From Candidatus Gottesmanbacteria bacterium (GTDB lineage: Bacteria; Patescibacteriota; Microgenomatia; UBA10105; UBA927), in contig JAUXTO010000042.1 in NCBI GenBank assembly GCA_030679255.1, positions 110,714 through 158,781 on the forward strand: a DNA stretch of 48,068 bases. The letters run 5' to 3'. A program made the translations under genes and the position numbers. Of the stretch, positions 4,365 to 25,055 are shown piece after piece (position 1 is the stretch's first letter; every line of letters starts with the position of its first letter). Under the pieces are notes generated by a model, which was not told the origin of the DNA, ran no database searches, and was given only the letters and a program-made list of their open reading frames with translations.

Positions 4365-4680
4365 CGCTCCCAGAGGGAATCCCTGCCCGCTAGCGCCTGA
4401 GCCTAGCTCTGGCAGGCGGGGAACCTTCATTTCCTCTTTACCTGCCCGCCGCGCCATTAATAAAAAAGTACGGCTGTATGCGCTCCCGGTGGGAATCGAA
4501 CCCACAACCTACTCTTTAGAAGAGAGTTGCTCTGTCCATTGAGCTACGGGAGCCTATCGGTAATTATACAACGGGTTAAGATTTTCTGCGCGCTTTGGCA
4601 GGCGGGGAAGAGAGGTGCCCCGCCTGCTACACCTCCAGCGTAGCTCTGGCGGGCAGGTCTATCCGTTGAGCTATGGGAGC
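4365..4680 (-). pseudogene. Interrupted outer tRNA-Arg(TCT) with three palindromic insertions, one containing an intact tRNA-Arg(TCT)
   Basis: Joining 4680-4658, 4618-4607, 4440-4421 and 4381-4365 gives GCTCCCA TAGCTCAACGGATAGAGCA CCTCT CTTCTAA AGAGG AAAT GAAGG TTCGATT CCCTC TGGGAGC G, a full cloverleaf. Confidence 0.85.
4481..4553 (-). tRNA. tRNA-Arg(TCT), nested
   Basis: Acceptor GCTCCCG/CGGGAGC, anticodon arm ACTCT-CTTCTAA-AGAGT. Confidence 0.95.
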
Positions 4681-4685
4681 GTAAG

Positions 4686-4756
4686 AGCGGGTGAAGGGAA
4701 TCGGACCCTCGTACCGAGTTTGGAAAACTCGTATTCTACCATTGAATTACACCCGC
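4686..4756 (-). tRNA. tRNA-Gly(TCC)
   Basis: Acceptor GCGGGTG/CACCCGC, anticodon arm CGAGT-TTTCCAA-ACTCG; T-loop TCCGATT. Confidence 0.92.
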
Positions 4757-18509: not shown

Positions 18510-18601
18510 AGTGAGATCATACCAGCAGGTCATGTAGGAATCCCTACCTCCATACATCTGAACGATGCTCTGACAGGAGGGAAATTTCCAAAAAAGCTCT
18601 G

Positions 18602-18672
18602 CAGGGACGTCCCGATTCGGACGGGAAATTAGGATTTTGGAGATCCTTGTGATGCCATTTCACTACGTCCCT
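18602..18672 (-). tRNA. tRNA-Trp(CCA)
   Basis: Acceptor AGGGACG/CGTCCCT, anticodon arm AGGAT-CTCCAAA-ATCCT; T-loop TCCGAAT. Confidence 0.92.
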
Positions 18673-20099: not shown

Positions 20100-20531
20100 T
20101 TACGGTCGCTTCAAGAAGGTGACGTCTATGCGTTTTGCTTCAAAAAAGTCCTGACAAAATTGTGCCGTCTTTTCCATATCATACCAGACACAGGAAAAAA
20201 TATTGATATAACAACTTTTTTTATATTCCGAAAAATGCCCGGTCACAGAACTCGTTTCGATAAGCTGAACCATAGAGTACCCGGCAGTAATAGGATTTTC
20301 ATGACCGAAGTGGGGTATAAGCGGCTCACCGTACCGCTTCATATGGATCACGCGGTCGCAAAGTTCTATGATAAATCGCTTGATTTCTTCACCGGATGAA
20401 ATTTTTTTAAGATTACAATCATACAGATTGAGGACTAGCTCTTGTCCAAAAAAATCTTTTTCATGCGGATTGATATTTTTAAGCATATATGTAGATAACG
20501 GTATTTTCTTCTGTTTGTCAATAGTCGTCAT
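20100..20531 (-). CDS. S-adenosylmethionine decarboxylase family protein
   Basis: FGQELVLNLYDC, GYS.VQLIETSS.TGHF, YINIFSC. Confidence 0.8.
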   Translation of the reverse strand: MTTIDKQKKIPLSTYMLKNINPHEKDFFGQELVLNLYDCNLKKISSGEEIKRFIIELCDRVIHMKRYGEPLIPHFGHENPITAGYSMVQLIETSSVTGHFSEYKKSCYINIFSCVWYDMEKTAQFCQDFFEAKRIDVTFLKRP

Positions 20532-20549
20532 GCATTATACTACGGCCAT

Positions 20550-21413
20550 ATGTCCTACATCGGCTTTGCGTGGATTACGGCCATACTGTATTCATCGAGT
20601 TTTCTTGTTGGGAAATACTCGACCAAACATAAAATCGCCAATCCATGGCTTTATAATTTTATCTGGTCTTTTATCATCGTCATACTGTCAACGATAATCG
20701 CAATTTTTCAAGGCGCCGGCATTCCGCACGATTGGAGAAGTTTGGTACTTGCCGGTTTTCTTTCCGCAATTGCCTCGGTGACCTATACATTGTCCATATA
20801 TTTACTCGATGTCACCGTTCTCGGGCCGCTCTATAACTTCAGAACGCCTATGGCTGTATTATTGGGAGTACTCATGTTTGGAGAAAAGCTATCAATGAAT
20901 CAGATGATGCTCATCGGTATCATGACCATAGCGGGAATGTTTATCAGTATGGACGAACGGTTTAGCATACGTACTTTTTTTCGCAAACCCATTGCCTTTG
21001 CCTTGCTGACTATCGCTGTCTCCGCACTTTATAACGCTAGTTTAAAATATGCAAGCGTTCAAAACGGCTATTGGAGCACGGTTTTGTGGTTTAATATCAT
21101 AAATCAGGTGTTTCTTGTCGTCACGGTACCGTTATTTTGGAAAGAATTGCACCGCGTGAGACCCACAGATTATATTCACGTTTCTATTTCTGCAGTCTTG
21201 GCTGGCCTGGGTGGTATCACGGTCATCCCGGCACTCCTTGGAAACTTAGGCATTACGGCAGCAATTTTATCTCTTCCTATCGCTATGGTGATTGCCATTG
21301 CATTATCCGTTGTCGCGCCACACCTCTTAGAAAAACATCCCTGGAAGGTGTATGCGGTGCGTCTCGGTGCCGCAGCCGTTATGTTTGGCAGCGCACTCAT
21401 GCTTTCCCGCTAA
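20550..21413 (+). CDS. EamA/DMT family transporter
   Basis: About 10 TM helices; LLGVLMFGEKLS motif. Confidence 0.8.
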   Translation: MSYIGFAWITAILYSSSFLVGKYSTKHKIANPWLYNFIWSFIIVILSTIIAIFQGAGIPHDWRSLVLAGFLSAIASVTYTLSIYLLDVTVLGPLYNFRTPMAVLLGVLMFGEKLSMNQMMLIGIMTIAGMFISMDERFSIRTFFRKPIAFALLTIAVSALYNASLKYASVQNGYWSTVLWFNIINQVFLVVTVPLFWKELHRVRPTDYIHVSISAVLAGLGGITVIPALLGNLGITAAILSLPIAMVIAIALSVVAPHLLEKHPWKVYAVRLGAAAVMFGSALMLSR

Positions 21414-21429
21414 GCAATTTTTCCGTTTG

Positions 21430-21677
21430 AGCCCAGAGAAGGAATTGTCATGCGAAGCGTGATTTGGCTTCGCCAGAAACCCACGACCGAGTTCTTACCG
21501 CGCTCGCCGCGCCTACCTTGAGCCCAGAGAGGGAATTGAACCCTCGACCTCTTTCTTACCAAGAAAGCGTTCTGCCGCTGAACTATCTGGGCGCTATGGC
21601 GGGCGAGCCAAGAACTCGCTCCCCGCCTGCAACGCTTAGCCTAGCATTGCGGGCAGGTACCACTGAGCCATTCGGGC
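21430..21677 (-). pseudogene. Interrupted outer tRNA-Thr(GGT) with three insertions, one containing an intact tRNA-Thr(GGT)
   Basis: Pieces 21677-21658, 21621-21608, 21497-21478 and 21447-21430 join to GCCCGAA TGGCTCAGTGGTAGAGCG AGTTC TTGGTAA GAACT CGGTC GTGGG TTCAATT CCTTC TCTGGGC T. Confidence 0.8.
21521..21592 (-). tRNA. tRNA-Thr(GGT), nested
   Basis: Acceptor GCCCAGA/TCTGGGC, anticodon arm CTTTC-TTGGTAA-GAAAG. Confidence 0.95.
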
Positions 21678-21729
21678 GCAATAAAGACAATTGTATCATG
21701 GATAAATAATTGTATGAAGTACAAAAAAC

Positions 21730-22245
21730 TTATGGCTGAGGTAATACGAAAGTTTGTGTACAGGAGGCCGTTTGATTGCTGTCATTTTTGAGCAGAACAT
21801 CGACAACCGTTGGTACGTTTGCCTCGAGTTCAAGAGAAGGAGAGTCGCAGCGAAATATTCCACCGCCTCGAGCTACATCCTGAGTAAGAGAACTCTGTGC
21901 GCTCGTCGTTGCGACAACTTTTCCGGCGACACTGACACTAAAATTGCACATGACTTTTTTGGTCGTCATGAGATCAGCCCCCTCTACACCGATAAAATAT
22001 TTCGGGAATCCGACAACGGGATTATACCATTGACGTTCACACGCCAGTCCAACGATAGGTCCAGGAGTCGGGGATACTTCAACGATCGGAGTGACTACTT
22101 CATTCCCTGTCTGAACCGGGGCATTTGTGGTCTTAGGTCGAAGAAAATAAACACCTCCGGCAATCGCAGCAAGAACAACCGCACCAATGACATAGTACAT
22201 CATCGACCCGTTTGTTTGTGTTTCTTCTGTGTGTTGTTCTTCCAT
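21730..22245 (-). CDS. Single-TM hypothetical protein with Cys pairs
   Basis: TM helix, PT linker, Cys-containing beta-rich domain; the start could be 22263. Confidence 0.65.
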   Translation of the reverse strand: MEEQHTEETQTNGSMMYYVIGAVVLAAIAGGVYFLRPKTTNAPVQTGNEVVTPIVEVSPTPGPIVGLACERQWYNPVVGFPKYFIGVEGADLMTTKKVMCNFSVSVAGKVVATTSAQSSLTQDVARGGGIFRCDSPSLELEANVPTVVDVLLKNDSNQTASCTQTFVLPQP

Positions 22246-22367
22246 ATCAACCACTATACCCATCTATATTTATCAATGCAAGGGTCAATTTTTTTATAGG
22301 ATATTGGCGTACCTAAAGATTGTTCCTGTCAACATTTTATATCAAAATCGGCTATAATAACCTTTAC

Positions 22368-22455
22368 GCTGAGGTGGCGGAGCGGACAATCGTAGTAGAC
22401 TGTAAATCTACCGGCCGAAAGGCCTACCCAGGTTCGAATCCTGGCCTCAGCACCA
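22368..22455 (+). tRNA. tRNA-Tyr(GTA)
   Basis: Acceptor GCTGAGG/CCTCAGC, anticodon arm GTAGA-CTGTAAA-TCTAC, variable arm, encoded CCA. Confidence 0.95.
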
Positions 22456-22494
22456 CTTCGCTAAAGCTTCGCGGTGCACGGCACATTTTTTGCT

Positions 22495-22806
22495 ATGCTT
22501 ATCCGAAAACGACTCATCGATAAAACGACCAGATTAAGCACACTGACCAATGCAATTGCCCATCGGTATCGTTTAGCAATACTCTATTTATTGGCCCATG
22601 ATCCGAAGGAAACGAGGGAACTTGCTTACGCCCTTGCGATACGGGAACCGCTCCTCATTCATCATGTACAAATTATGGTCAAATCAGGCTGGCTCAGACG
22701 GATTAAAACCGGCAGGCATGTGACGTATGAGTTGAAAGAAGATTGCGCTATAGAACTCAAGAAGTTTTTAGGAGATACTCCGTTTTTTCGTAATTTGAGC
22801 CGATGA
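22495..22806 (+). CDS. ArsR family winged-helix transcriptional regulator
   Basis: AIAH.YRL.IL.LL…….ELA..L.I….L.HH…M..SGW….K.GR.V.Y.L. Confidence 0.75.
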   Translation: MLIRKRLIDKTTRLSTLTNAIAHRYRLAILYLLAHDPKETRELAYALAIREPLLIHHVQIMVKSGWLRRIKTGRHVTYELKEDCAIELKKFLGDTPFFRNLSR

Positions 22807-22998
22807 TCCCGCTTAGCGGGACAACCTTCGCTTTATCCCAGTACCATTTAGCTCGCCTTTGTTTGGAGCCTCCCAACAGAATCGAACTGTTATCAGCGGT
22901 TTATCCCAGTACTTCTTGCTGGCGACACTATTGAGCTGGCGGGGAGGATCGGACTCCCGACCTACTGTTTATCCCAGTACCATTTAGCCGACGTCTTG

Positions 22999-23070
22999 AG
23001 CCGACGAGAGGATTTGAACCTCCAACCTTCGCTTTACAAAAGCGCTGCTCAACCATTGAGCTACGTCGGC
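22999..23070 (-). tRNA. tRNA-Thr(TGT), innermost and intact
   Basis: Acceptor GCCGACG/CGTCGGC, anticodon arm GCGCT-TTTGTAA-AGCGA. Confidence 0.93.
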
Positions 23071-23084
23071 GTAAATGTACGGGA

Positions 23085-23129
23085 CTAACTCACAGTATAA
23101 CTCACTTCGTTCGCTAACTGTGAGTTGAG
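23085..23129. repeat. 45-nt hairpin element (second copy at 23301-23345)
   Basis: CTAACTCACAGTA…CTCACTTCGTTCGC..ACTGTGAGTTGAG, two near-identical copies at tRNA anticodon split points. Confidence 0.85.
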
Positions 23130-23476
23130 CAAAACAGTTGCTCGGACTTTATCCGCCTCTGGCGGAACTGAGCTACGCCAGCTTAGAAGTACGGGATCCC
23201 GCACCTCTAAGCCAAATTGTACAACAATTTGGCAAGATGGTGCTGGGACAAAACCGTCGCTCTGCCGTTGAGCTAGGGAGGCGAGCATAAATGTACGGGA
23301 CTAACTCACAGTATTACTCACTTCGTTCGCAAACTGTGAGTTGAGCAAAACAGTTGCCCCGCCCGCTACGCCTGAGCGTTAGCTCTGGCGGGCAGGTCTA
23401 CCACTGAGCTACGCCAGCAACTCGTATTGAAATTGTACCAAAGACTACGAAGATCAACAACATTTGAGGTTAAAGA

Positions 23477-23698
23477 GTGGAAGTAAAGAAATAATTCCGC
23501 CTGCCAGCAATGCTTACGCAAAGCGTTTGCAGGCTGGCCCGGTAGGATGAAGGTATTTTCCCCGATTTGATCAATCGGAAGGACCGTCTCACTGACCAAG
23601 GCCAGTGAAGAACTTTAGTCCTGTCTCCTGCGCCAAAAATTGGTGCAGAATACCTCATTGTTCATGATTTTGTGGAGGAAAATATTCTCCATCTCCAC
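23477..23698 (-). ncRNA. Putative 6S-like rod-shaped RNA carrying two palindromic inserts
   Basis: Minus-strand TTGACA-17-TAAGCT promoter upstream. Terminal stem GTGGA/TCCAC, stems ATGAGGTATT/AATACCTTCAT and AGGAC/GTCCT around a central bubble, apical TCACTGGCC/GGTCAGTGA; no convincing ORF. Confidence 0.5.
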
Positions 23699-23728
23699 AC
23701 GGGCATAATCAGCTTATCGATTACAAAT

Positions 23729-24379
23729 TCATTTGTCAAGAGCGGCAAAAAAGAACCGGTTATTCGATATAGAAAAGTCTCGAACATCATGGAATATTGT
23801 TTTCAGTGTAATGTTCAACGTATTTGATTTTTTCAGATAATCAAGCTCACGGAGATAGTTGACGATCACGACCCCCTGCGGTTTCAGACAGCGTTTCAGT
23901 GATTGATAAAAAGAAGGTAAAGTAACAAATTCCGGAATGATCCGTCCGATAAAAAGATCGATGACGATCAAATCATAGCTATGAGCCGGTGGAGCACTGA
24001 TGTATTTTTTAGCATCATCGACGATAAACTGTATGAACGGGAACGAATCAAATCCAAAATATTTTTTGGCGATCGATATAATCGTTGCATCGATGTCAAC
24101 CGCAGTTATGTAGGGCTTGACTGTGCGTTCGGAGAGAATTCTCATCACCGTCCCACCTCCTACTCCTAACACGAGAATAGACGGCTGGTCCGGAAATTGG
24201 GGTAGCCCAAATGCATCGATAGCTTTTTCCCATAACTCCTGGATGGTCGGCCCTGACTGCCGGGAACCATTAACGAGTAATCTTCTCACCCCCCATTCTT
24301 CCATGACCCGTATATCTTGATTGTACCGGGAGGATGTATGAAGAAGCGTACGGGGAATGAGGTACGACAAAAGGGACAT
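23729..24379 (-). CDS. Spermidine-synthase-like SAM-dependent methyltransferase
   Basis: ILVLGVGGG, TAVDID, DDAKKY, YDLIVIDLF, LKPQGV.IVN. Confidence 0.82.
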   Translation of the reverse strand: MSLLSYLIPRTLLHTSSRYNQDIRVMEEWGVRRLLVNGSRQSGPTIQELWEKAIDAFGLPQFPDQPSILVLGVGGGTVMRILSERTVKPYITAVDIDATIISIAKKYFGFDSFPFIQFIVDDAKKYISAPPAHSYDLIVIDLFIGRIIPEFVTLPSFYQSLKRCLKPQGVVIVNYLRELDYLKKSNTLNITLKTIFHDVRDFSISNNRFFFAALDK

Positions 24380-24380
24380 A

Positions 24381-25055
24381 TCAGATAAATCGGGCGATAG
24401 GCAATAAGAGTCCAAGAATAAAACTGATAATGGGTGAAATAATTTGATGAATCGGCGATACGCCGCCGCCAAGGGGAAGAATGAGGAAAATGAGGAAAAT
24501 CATGCCATAGCGTTCAAGCCCGGCCCACTGATGTGCGTACTCTTCCGGGAGTATTCCCCCGACAATTTTAAATCCGTCCAACGGATGAATGGGAACGAGG
24601 TTAAAGATAGCAAGGATAACGTTATAGATAATGAGAGGTTGTAGGAGACTAATAATAAAATAAATGAATAATTGAATAATCGAATAATTGAATGTGGAAA
24701 CACCGAAGCGCATAAGCACATTGAGAAGTATAGAGCATACAAGGGCGAGTAAGAGGTTGCTTACGGGACCGGCGAGAGATATGAGGGCGCTGTCGCGGCG
24801 CGGGAACCGGAGGTTATAGGGATCAAACTGGACGGGTTTTCCCCAACCAAACCGAACGATTAAAAGCATAATCGTGCCGATCGGATCCAGATGAGCAAGC
24901 GGGTTAAGGGTGAGACGACCCATGAGCCTTGGCGTCGGATCACCCAGCCGGTCCGCGGACCACGCGTGGGCAAATTCATGGATAGTAATGGCGATAACCA
25001 ATGCGAGTATTCCCAATAGGAAACCCAGGGGATCAGTGGAAAGTTCTCCGAGCAT
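24381..25055 (-). CDS. Site-2 protease family (M50) zinc metalloprotease
   Basis: HEFAH, GDPTP…GRLTLNPL.HLD, AGPVSN, FNLVPIHPLDG. Confidence 0.92.
   Translation of the reverse strand: MLGELSTDPLGFLLGILALVIAITIHEFAHAWSADRLGDPTPRLMGRLTLNPLAHLDPIGTIMLLIVRFGWGKPVQFDPYNLRFPRRDSALISLAGPVSNLLLALVCSILLNVLMRFGVSTFNYSIIQLFIYFIISLLQPLIIYNVILAIFNLVPIHPLDGFKIVGGILPEEYAHQWAGLERYGMIFLIFLILPLGGGVSPIHQIISPIISFILGLLLPIARFI

Follow-up and report, generated by a model that had tools for sequence, protein, structure and literature searches.

Two ways are known in which mobile DNA gets by inside essential tRNA genes, namely self-splicing, as in group I introns, and a carried repair patch, as in integrative elements. 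Group I introns follow the rule that the 5′ exon ends in U and the intron in G, and self-splicing restores the host. Archaeal tRNA introns, which are considered mobile, show a bulge-helix-bulge (a 3-nt bulge on each strand, the two separated by 4 bp) and depend on EndA and RtcB for their removal. Integrative elements directed at tRNA genes are of kilobase size, encode an integrase, carry only the 3′ part of a tRNA and are bounded by direct repeats. Among hairpin-bearing elements, those of the IS200/IS605 family and the palindrome-associated transposable elements (PATEs) have hairpins at their ends and insert seamlessly and strand-specifically as single-stranded DNA 3′ of a fixed tetra- or pentanucleotide, being cut some bases off the hairpin foot. 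Integron attC sites have a GTTRRRY/RYYYAAC core and belong with the IntI integrase and attI. The very small dispersed repeats (SDR) of Nostoc and related cyanobacteria, which Elhai et al. are said to have described in 2008, are reportedly tiny hairpin repeats that enter other repeats and hairpins and are nested in one another, with neither target duplication nor a known enzyme, and they are not known to carry cargo, to target tRNA genes or to act by replacement. According to Bertels & Rainey 2011 (PMC3116915), REPs and REPINs are non-autonomous imperfect palindromes, with an inverted doublet as the functional unit and hairpins predicted in single-stranded DNA or RNA, and they are mobilised by RAYT, a Y1 HUH enzyme. 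Here, we describe a locus at which tRNA-Thr(UGU) genes lie nested within one another on a stretch of 48,068 nucleotides (the window) from a Candidatus Gottesmanbacteria bacterium (assembly GCA_030679255.1, contig JAUXTO010000042.1). We read this locus, with a probability of roughly 0.6, as a nest of miniature hairpin-bounded non-coding DNA cassettes, each of which replaces a tRNA gene of the same isoacceptor.

The nest occupies positions 23418–22796 of the minus strand and consists of four tRNA-Thr(UGU) genes, each enclosing the next. The intact gene D lies inside the interrupted genes C and B and an outer shell (Table 1). D is the sole tRNA of the nest called by ARAGORN and the Rfam tRNA model (call at 22998–23070), and ARAGORN detects no other tRNA-Thr(UGU) in the whole genome (G000; 1.45 Mb on 44 contigs). 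All splits fall at one point of the anticodon loop, TTTG^TAA, between positions 35 and 36 of tRNA-Thr, with one T ambiguous. The outer layer is a chimera of two older hosts because its 3′ piece, which is D-type-like, does not match its 5′ piece with a C-type acceptor. Every layer opens with TCCCGTAC (at 23300 for B, 23196 for C and 23084 for D) and closes with GTACTGGGA (22844–22836, 22912–22904 and 22980–22972, respectively), and the inner arms pair with the leader or the 5′ acceptor strand of the cargo. A second hairpin stands between the TTTG of the host and the carrier; it measures 45 nt in two layers, and in the third it is a cargo-free hairpin of 52 nt, termed H1. An earlier interpretation made from the letters alone (the sequence-only reading) had listed the motifs, three arm pairs, and the cargo-free relative and two 45-nt hairpins as stacked at the junctions; all of these, coordinates included, are correct on the minus strand.

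Table 1. Features of the tRNA-Thr(UGU) nest, ordered from the 5′ to the 3′ end of the minus strand (positions in the window)
Feature	Position	Strand	Evidence or remark
TGGTACAAT, extended −10 box by eye, candidate only	23432..23440	−	same place in G001 and G003
A5′ remnant, outermost tRNA-Thr(UGU), C-type acceptor GCTGGCG, ends in TTTG	23346..23418	−	sequence reading
39-nt palindromic insert in the D stem of A5′	23396-23358	−	member of the CCYGCCYGC...GCRGGCRGG family
45-nt hairpin copy 1, CTCAACTCACAGT...ACTGTGAGTTAG, between host TTTG and carrier	23301..23345	−	
B carrier 5′ arm, TCCCGTAC ATTTAT GCTC	23283..23300	−	sequence and duplex test
Layer B tRNA-Thr(UGU) 5′ half, GCCTCCC...GGTTTTG	23249..23282	−	
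H1, empty hairpin of the same family, inverse orientation, TCCC-A-GCACC...GGTGC-GGGA	23197..23248	−	covariation in 28 distinct copies
C carrier 5′ arm, TCCCGTAC TTCTAA	23183..23196	−	sequence and duplex test
Layer C tRNA-Thr(UGU) 5′ half, GCTGGCG...	23130..23182	−	
15-nt mini-hairpin TCCGCCAGAGGCGGA in the D loop of layer C	23166-23152	−	family with 15 genome copies
45-nt hairpin copy 2	23085..23129	−	
D carrier 5′ arm, TCCCGTAC ATTTAC	23071..23084	−	sequence and duplex test
D, innermost intact tRNA-Thr(UGU)	22997..23070	−	ARAGORN; Rfam tRNA 67.9 bits
D carrier 3′ arm, AGA CGTCGGC TAAATG GTACTGGGA	22972..22996	−	duplex −26.1 kcal/mol
Layer C 3′ half, TAAACAGT...CGCCAGCTCA	22932..22971	−	
C carrier 3′ arm, ATAGTGT CGCCAGC AAGAA GTACTGGGA	22904..22931	−	duplex −30.0 kcal/mol
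Layer B 3′ half, TAAACCGC...GGGAGGCTCCA	22864..22903	−	uninterrupted in 8 relatives; ARAGORN after joining
B carrier 3′ arm, AACAA AGGCGAGC TAAATG GTACTGGGA	22836..22863	−	duplex −28.8 kcal/mol
A3′ outermost remnant, D-type-like, mini-hairpin TCCCGCTAAGCGGGA (22821-22807) in the truncated T arm	22796..22835	−	

The layers differ between relatives in a manner that reveals filled and empty sites. Layer B is unsplit in eight relatives (G001, G002, G005, G010, G018, G020, G022 and G024), in which query positions 193 and 538 adjoin with one T in common, and three DNA runs of other studies contain contigs with the same empty joint (22902→23248), the comparison with sequencing runs having been made on assembled contigs. 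Filled and empty sites differ by exactly the TCCC…GGGA block with its one ambiguous T; the junction is seamless and no longer target duplication can be resolved. Four congeneric genomes, which share the locus and its upstream sequence, show four different nest states: both halves of a C-type host around an E-type cargo (G003), an intact B cassette within a truncated shell (G001), an intact B cassette within another shell (G002) and the four-deep nest described here. The roles of the genes are also exchanged, as B is a cargo here and a host at the loci L051 and L002, and E is a cargo at L004 and a remnant at L005 and L050.

Chance similarity or the mis-assembly of several tRNA-Thr genes comes to mind for a locus with short repeats in a metagenome bin of 44 contigs. 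Junctions of the nest, however, recur with 0 differences in contigs of two other studies (X4, 23167–23283; X2, 22832–22971), which makes an assembly artefact unlikely, and the same architecture was found in 18 of 401 genomes. Taken with the shuffle and permutation tests given below, this leaves such an artefact a very small probability.

To judge the fit between the two arms, 26 units consisting of a carrier opening and a tRNA were collected from loci of related genomes and from layers B and C of the nest; they were discovered through an intact cargo or one exact junction pattern. In each of the three layers of the nest, 0 of 200 shuffles matched the arm duplex (Table 1), the shuffles reaching about −10 to −12 kcal/mol (standard deviation 2.3–2.8). 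The closing motif is present in 22 of the 26 units, these complete units coming from 20+ genomes, and for 20 of the 22 no shuffle out of 200 was as good as the real arms, the remaining two being equalled by 1–3 of 200. Arm pairing was at chance in the four units that lack the closing motif, with 11–158 of 200 shuffles as good. When the conserved ends were trimmed, the inner arms paired with their own partners at a mean of −14.5 kcal/mol and with partners from other units at −8.2 kcal/mol, an advantage that 0 of 10000 permutations attained. In 10 of 20 distinct units the own partner came first; the units are mutually related and the shuffle and permutation counts therefore overstate independence. 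The proposal that each pair of arms is tailored to its cargo is thus borne out by the advantage of own over swapped partners, and the shuffle check suggested along with it shows complementarity above chance in other copies, contrary to what would have refuted it. The arms also extend into the 5′ end of the cargo as had been described, namely into the acceptor in D and C and into the leader and some tRNA bases in B.

A genome-wide collection of TCCCGYAC…GTRCTGGGA pairs had been suggested as well. The words alone turned out to be at chance level, since TCCCGYAC occurs 121 times in the genome and simple arithmetic predicts about 88. GTACTGGGA occurs ten times in the genome, three of them in the nest; five of the ten are unrelated chance matches, four of which appear to be coding. 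The element is rare in the genome and no common repeat.

The complete units share one architecture. The cassette would be an imperfect hairpin built from a first helix P1 (TCCC/GGGA), a one-base bulge, a second helix P2 (GYAC/GTRC), a variable P3 and a GC-rich P4, with a complete tRNA gene as its loop. P1 is kept in all 22 complete units, and the bulge that follows it on the 3′ strand is a T in 19 of them. The last pair of P2 varies in these units while remaining a pair (CG in 14, TA in 2, GC in 2 and AT in 2), and P3 covaries as ATTTA/TAAAT, ATCTA/TAGAT, TTCT/AGAA, CCTCT/AGAGG, TTTT/AAAA and ATTTTCA/TGAAAAT. P4 comprises 7–10 bp and always starts with GC, and it is drawn from the 5′ acceptor of the cargo (D, C), from a 4-nt leader with 3–4 tRNA bases (B and E-type) or from the leader alone (L060, L061). 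The counterpart of the 45-nt hairpin in G001 likewise carries a compensatory change (CGCAGT/ACTGCG).

H1 belongs to the same design. Read on the opposite strand, it has the carrier layout TCCCGCAC-N-TCTAA-GC… with the bulge shifted to the other arm, and in the H1 of L011 the P4 is a 7-bp stem with a three-base closure. In a consensus of 28 distinct copies, 95.4% of the cells were paired compared with 83.5% after column shuffling (0 of 500 shuffles as good), and two-sided changes were found in 9 of 14 pairs. Slid controls gave 33–50%. H1 is the carrier hairpin, empty and inverted.

These data bear on the origin of the arms, for which the sequence-only reading had proposed that one arm was templated from the other in a single fold-back or template-switch synthesis at the capture of the tRNA, the complementarity being a relic of this event. 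Mutation by a templated route is well established for quasi-palindromes. In agreement with it, one outer carrier (TCCCGTAC ATTTAC…TAAATG GTACTGGGA) is combined with different cargos (B, D, L009, L020), its innermost arm being fitted to the cargo in each case, and the extra arm of the D and C types repeats the complement of the 7-base 5′ acceptor strand a few bases past the 3′ end of the tRNA. A single event, however, predicts perfect pairing followed by random decay, and what was found is the same imperfect architecture throughout 22 units, with conserved positions of the bulges and the T mentioned above. Within one type the changes are compensatory, as in ATTTA/TAAAT versus ATCTA/TAGAT for B and TTCT/AGAA versus CCTCT/AGAGG versus TTTT/AAAA for C. 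In L007 (TGCCAGC versus CGTCAGC) and in the B- and E-type cassettes, the extra 3′ arm does not reproduce the 3′ acceptor strand of the tRNA itself, and no microhomology was seen by eye at the supposed switch points. Captures are also rare, because the cassette types are old lineages common to several families. As the bulges are conserved and the changes compensatory, the hairpin appears to be kept paired rather than templated once, which fits a pairing upheld through time by selection or by repeated intrastrand correction. Templating may still contribute in the latter form; as a single event at capture, we consider it unlikely.

The fate of the interrupted genes provides a further line of evidence. 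Exact excision of the insert in silico gives a tRNA recognised by ARAGORN in 10 of 22 hosts, among them layer B, whose joined halves are called as tRNA-Thr(tgt); the remaining 12 hosts have been truncated, are chimeric or bear additional interruptions, and layer C gives no ARAGORN tRNA after removal of its anticodon-loop insert. The T loop of layer C (22954–22948) reads TCCGAWY, with C in place of the near-universal U55; the same loop was seen in tRNA-Gly(UCC) (4685–4756) and at L008 and L011, and it is probably a lineage trait and not decay because it recurs in called genes. In all 26 units the loop fragment of the host corresponds to the anticodon of the cargo (Thr-UGU, Thr-CGU, Cys-GCA), and host and cargo also agree in the L048 Glu-UUC nest, in a Trp-CCA cassette and in Arg-UCU and Thr-GGU nests with other carriers. 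Such a match would be dispensable for a spliced intron, and it is required if the insertion kills an essential single-copy gene. No empty hairpin was found in an otherwise intact, unreplaced tRNA among 20 matches of the junction pattern. Where doublets are empty (L057, L063, L064), they occupy the T loop (TT^CRA) of a dead 3′ remnant that lies behind an intact Leu, His or Gly gene.

A new kind of bacterial tRNA intron has to be weighed against this background. One precursor would be made, from which the TCCC…GGGA hairpins would be cut out and the two halves of each host joined; D, B and the other intact hosts would then all be functional, and the arms would form the helix joining the splice sites. 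This would explain why the insertions lie in loops and are closed by a helix, leaving the host fold intact, why 10 of 22 hosts are restored by exact excision, why cargo and host always have the same orientation and why H1 and the arms covary as structured RNA would; moreover, a true group I intron is accommodated in a tRNA-fMet-like gene of this very genome (RF00028, 56.3 bits). No bulge-helix-bulge, however, was found at the junctions of the nest, which lie at the foot of the TCCC/GGGA helix beside a 4×3 internal loop and have single-base bulges only. EndA (PF01974) and RtcB (PF01139) gave 0 matches in the 95%-complete genome, in a search in which control genomes scored, an incomplete genome being no proof of absence. 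An Rfam scan of positions 20500–25000 at E ≤ 1 returned three ordinary tRNAs and two chance-level matches and neither an intron nor a ribozyme, and RF00028 readily picks up the intron of the tRNA-fMet-like gene elsewhere in the genome. The insert G|TCCC…GGGA|T ends in A, or in T if the ambiguous T is shifted, and not in G. The 12 hosts that are decayed or have unmatched halves, the anticodon match, which would be needless if hosts were spliced, the 0 of 20 unreplaced tRNAs with an empty hairpin and the occurrence of the same hairpins in D and T loops of remnants only all speak against splicing. We consequently regard an intron as distinctly unlikely and suppose that the inserts are not spliced. 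The earlier suggestion that the stem juxtaposes the host tRNA halves finds no visible purpose here, because 12 of the 22 hosts are decayed or chimeric.

The same suggestion had the stem compete with folding of the inner acceptor stem, and this is supported by the predicted RNA fold, in which the 5′ strand of the acceptor is paired to the extra arm at P = 0.98 and to its own 3′ strand at P of about 1e-10. If so, the winning stem suggests co-transcriptional folding with a fast RNase P, or a stem that is cut. A scan of 22600–23700 for a two-hexamer consensus detected no promoter and no terminator; judged by its sequence and its conservation in the genus, TGGTACAAT at 23440–23432 could drive one transcript through the nest. 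From these observations one may argue that the arms serve solely in RNA processing, perhaps as an RNase III site of the kind found around rRNAs, by which the cargo pre-tRNA would be released from a long read-through transcript, and that nesting arose by ordinary recombination of tRNA-Thr paralogues. A stem of about 20 bp with small bulges, the scan without an internal promoter or terminator and a predicted fold that beats the acceptor helix unless cut or out-run during transcription are all compatible with this. Empty hairpins of the same design nevertheless process nothing and are conserved and covarying, and they also occur in T loops of dead remnants. Recombination of paralogues does not account for the precision with which one loop position has been entered again and again in genes for Thr, Cys, Glu and Trp, and RNase P and 3′ trimming need no such stem. 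This explanation thus seems distinctly unlikely to us.

In the reading that we prefer, replacement by DNA cassettes, a cassette would fold as a single strand and insert seamlessly into the anticodon loop of a tRNA gene of the same isoacceptor, in the orientation of the host. It could be transcribed from the host promoter because it is oriented as the host gene. The split resident gene would be dead and the cargo would assume its job, until the next cassette enters the cargo in the same way, giving D in C in B in an older chimeric shell, while old shells would decay and gather other small palindromes. The fold-back arms would be the element's own stem, presumably recognised in single-stranded DNA by the mobilising machinery, and the stem would track the leader or acceptor of each cargo because selection on the element, or intrastrand correction, preserves its pairing. 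The cell would be unable to lose the element, because the resident gene has been killed and the sole working copy is supplied by the element itself. Tentatively, and with clear doubt, this can be extended to a distinct selfish class of self-complementing tRNA replacement cassettes that would be gene-drive-like, have a dedicated enzyme, target 7-nt tRNA loops and be serially displaced by rivals, with the result that all tRNA-Thr genes of the bacterial class, together with some of the genes for Cys, Glu, Trp and Arg, would be present or former cargo. The inserted form would be a folded single strand, a hairpin with fixed extrahelical bases whose loop is a tRNA cloverleaf. The cassettes would be a variant of miniature palindromic mobile elements, with a fair chance of deserving a class of their own.

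Several findings weigh against replacement by mobile DNA. Intermediates of transposition or excision were not seen, and the cassettes could not be linked to any enzyme. Y1 transposases were considered as the mobilising enzyme; their genes are present, but the palindromes flanking them differ from the TCCC hairpins. The 5′ flanks at the insertion sites have no fixed sequence (TTTG, ATCG, TTCG, TCTG, GTTC, TTTT, GGTT), and the sites share only a loose N^YRA within 7-nt loops, which fits no characterised transposase that we know. In the genome, the TCCCGTAC-type hairpin is confined to the Thr nest, a Trp cassette and a single isolated element and is thus unlike a proliferating repeat. The 10 of 22 hosts that look intact are equally expected from a spliced intron, and their explanation by recent insertion is an assumption. 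Dead cargos and diverged carriers are under-sampled, because discovery of the units needed an intact cargo or the exact junction pattern. The RNA is uninformative: the metatranscriptome run X20 contained 4% of the sampled words and one contig with uninterrupted B, which says nothing on splicing or expression because uninterrupted B exists as DNA.

The junction pattern of H1 and carrier matched 20 times in 18 of the 401 genomes of the class, in several families, with 0 matches for the reversed control pattern, and 0 times in 237 genomes from other classes of the phylum; as the pattern is strict, these counts are lower bounds. A looser pattern, TCCCRYA N90-120 WGGGATAAA, was rejected because its matches, in 83 of the 401 genomes, were chiefly due to chance, about 13 true cassettes being recognised by eye. 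A gapped version of the junction pattern gave 75 matches in viral contigs, none with an H1-type fold or the conserved ATCT…TAGA core, a negative that does not prove absence, and exact 14-mer scans of genomes and viral contigs gave 0 true hairpins in 236 loci checked, among the matches listed. Elsewhere in the class, the same TCCC-type carriers were seen with tRNA-Cys(GCA) inside tRNA-Cys, split as CTG^CAAA (L046, L049, L060), and with tRNA-Glu(UUC) inside tRNA-Glu at TTTT^CAA (L048), a nest whose cargo occupies the other member of the hairpin doublet. At L052, three layers of Thr(CGU) are nested, and internal deletions are present.

Further nests exist in the genome under study. On the minus strand of the window at about 4375–4680 (G000 C29:115090-115395), an intact tRNA-Arg(UCU) (4480–4553) lies in a tRNA-Arg(UCU) split at CTTC^TAAA; it has a different palindromic carrier, CCCGCCTGCC…GGCGGGCAGG, and a TTGTATAAT-like box of its own, and palindromes of the carrier type are also found in the D stem and T loop of the host. 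A second nest (21428–21679, minus strand) holds tRNA-Thr(GGU) (21520–21592) in a tRNA-Thr(GGU) split at TTGG^TAAG, with a carrier that is distinct again (CTCGCCCGCC…GGCGCGGCGAG) and palindromic inserts in the D and T arms of the host. In the Trp cassette L382 (G000 C23:84386-84540, minus strand), an H1-like hairpin precedes the TCCCGAAG…CTTCTGGGA carrier of a tRNA-Trp(CCA), and the whole lies in a remnant loop at GTC^CAAA; a second, plain tRNA-Trp is located at 18601–18672 of the window. The lone 70-nt TCCCGTAC…GTACTGGGA element, with no tRNA in or around it, lies between TCAA and TATATAAT (G000 C40:49729-49798).

Other small palindromes are frequent. Those of the CCYGCCYGC…GCRGGCRGG family, of about 36–40 nt, gave 68 regular-expression matches with both strands counted. 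They are often nested in one another or inside AAGTCAAAAGTC-type tandem repeats, the D or T arms of tRNA remnants contain at least seven of them (in the window, for example, 23396–23358 and 21657–21622), and the family provides the carrier of the Arg-UCU nest. Mini-hairpins of 15–16 nt are far above chance, with 15 genome copies of TCCGCC(N3-5)GGCGGA and 39 of TCCCGC(N3-5)GCGGGA, and they have the TCC(C)/(G)GGA foot in common with the tRNA carriers, as relatives of the carrier hairpin with the behaviour of dispersed DNA repeats. The group I intron mentioned above (L381, G000 C23:86624-86814, minus strand; 56.3 bits at a gathering threshold of 50) interrupts the anticodon loop of its tRNA-fMet-like host, and its peripheral hairpins TCCGCCAGTTGGCGGA and TCCCGCTTAGCGGGA are the mini-hairpins of the layer C D loop and the outer 3′ remnant. 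Nine Y1_Tnp matches were found in the genome, consisting of IS200-type fragments and five RAYT-like genes (G000 C17:37895, C25:3617, C25:49002, C36:20144 and C40:64085; stop-to-stop lengths of 217–267 amino acids, with an in-frame TAG in one of them). Palindromes particular to each RAYT-like gene (CAAGGCCNGGCCTTG, AAAGCCWGGCTTT and others) border it on either side and are among the commonest 12-mers of the genome. Another 12-mer, GTTCCCCCGCGC, has 23 copies and a CRISPR-repeat-like appearance.

The open reading frames next to the nest, for an ArsR-type regulator and a spermidine-synthase-like methyltransferase, have no apparent link to it. Nineteen tRNA genes are clustered at 357–23070 of the window, and 24 of the 47 tRNAs of the genome lie on this contig. 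No tRNA-Asn was found in the assembly, and there is one plain CAU tRNA only.

If replacement by cassettes is true, it represents a third way for mobile DNA to persist in essential tRNA genes, with a complete spare gene inside the element's own hairpin. It would explain tRNA remnants, pseudogenes beside working genes and tRNA clusters in small-genome groundwater bacteria, and it is a warning that tRNA-finding programs detect the innermost gene only. The cassettes would be a natural addictive element without a toxin and a clean test case for the recognition of single-stranded hairpins with fixed bulges. If splicing is true instead, a bacterial tRNA splicing pathway new to science would operate here. 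The four states in four congeneric genomes make the locus a sensitive strain marker. A search of full-text literature, with subscription journals and supplements outside its coverage, found neither bacterial tRNA-in-tRNA nests nor tRNA-carrying palindromic elements.

Comparison with the systems introduced above places the cassettes between several of them. Like REPINs, H1 and the abutting carrier form an inverted hairpin doublet, and RAYT-like genes are present in the genome; REPINs, however, are many-copy, extragenic and devoid of a gene, whereas the cassettes are few-copy, target a tRNA loop and hold a whole tRNA as their loop, and the RAYT-like genes are flanked by CAAGGCCNGGCCTTG- and AAAGCCWGGCTTT-type palindromes instead of TCCC hairpins. 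The mini-hairpins and CCCGCC-type palindromes of this genome behave as the Nostoc SDR are said to do. With IS200/IS605 elements the cassettes share hairpin ends and seamless, orientation-specific insertion, and Y1 genes are present without a link to the hairpins, but the 5′ flank of the cassettes varies and their boundary is the hairpin foot itself. An inverted end is also typical of miniature inverted-repeat transposable elements; the cassettes differ in that at most one ambiguous base is duplicated and no fixed-length target duplication is seen. The resemblance to attC is one of form only, with conserved ends, a variable centre and single-base bulges at fixed places, and no GTTRRRY was found at the cassette ends on reading the sequence.

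The remaining systems share the target. Group I introns likewise enter the anticodon loop of an essential tRNA and solve the problem of killing the host, but the cassettes lack a ribozyme core (no Rfam match), end in A instead of G and seem to bring a spare gene instead of splicing. Archaeal tRNA introns are similar as short hairpin-like insertions at the anticodon, D and T regions, whereas here no bulge-helix-bulge, EndA or RtcB was found and many hosts are dead. Integrative elements also target anticodon or T loops, repair the damage with carried tRNA sequence and leave stacked remnants; the cassettes differ from them in measuring about 115 nt, in having no open reading frame, a whole tRNA and inverted ends, and in leaving both halves of the host in place. 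Each of the nearest known systems thus shares features with the cassettes and fails at least one defining test.

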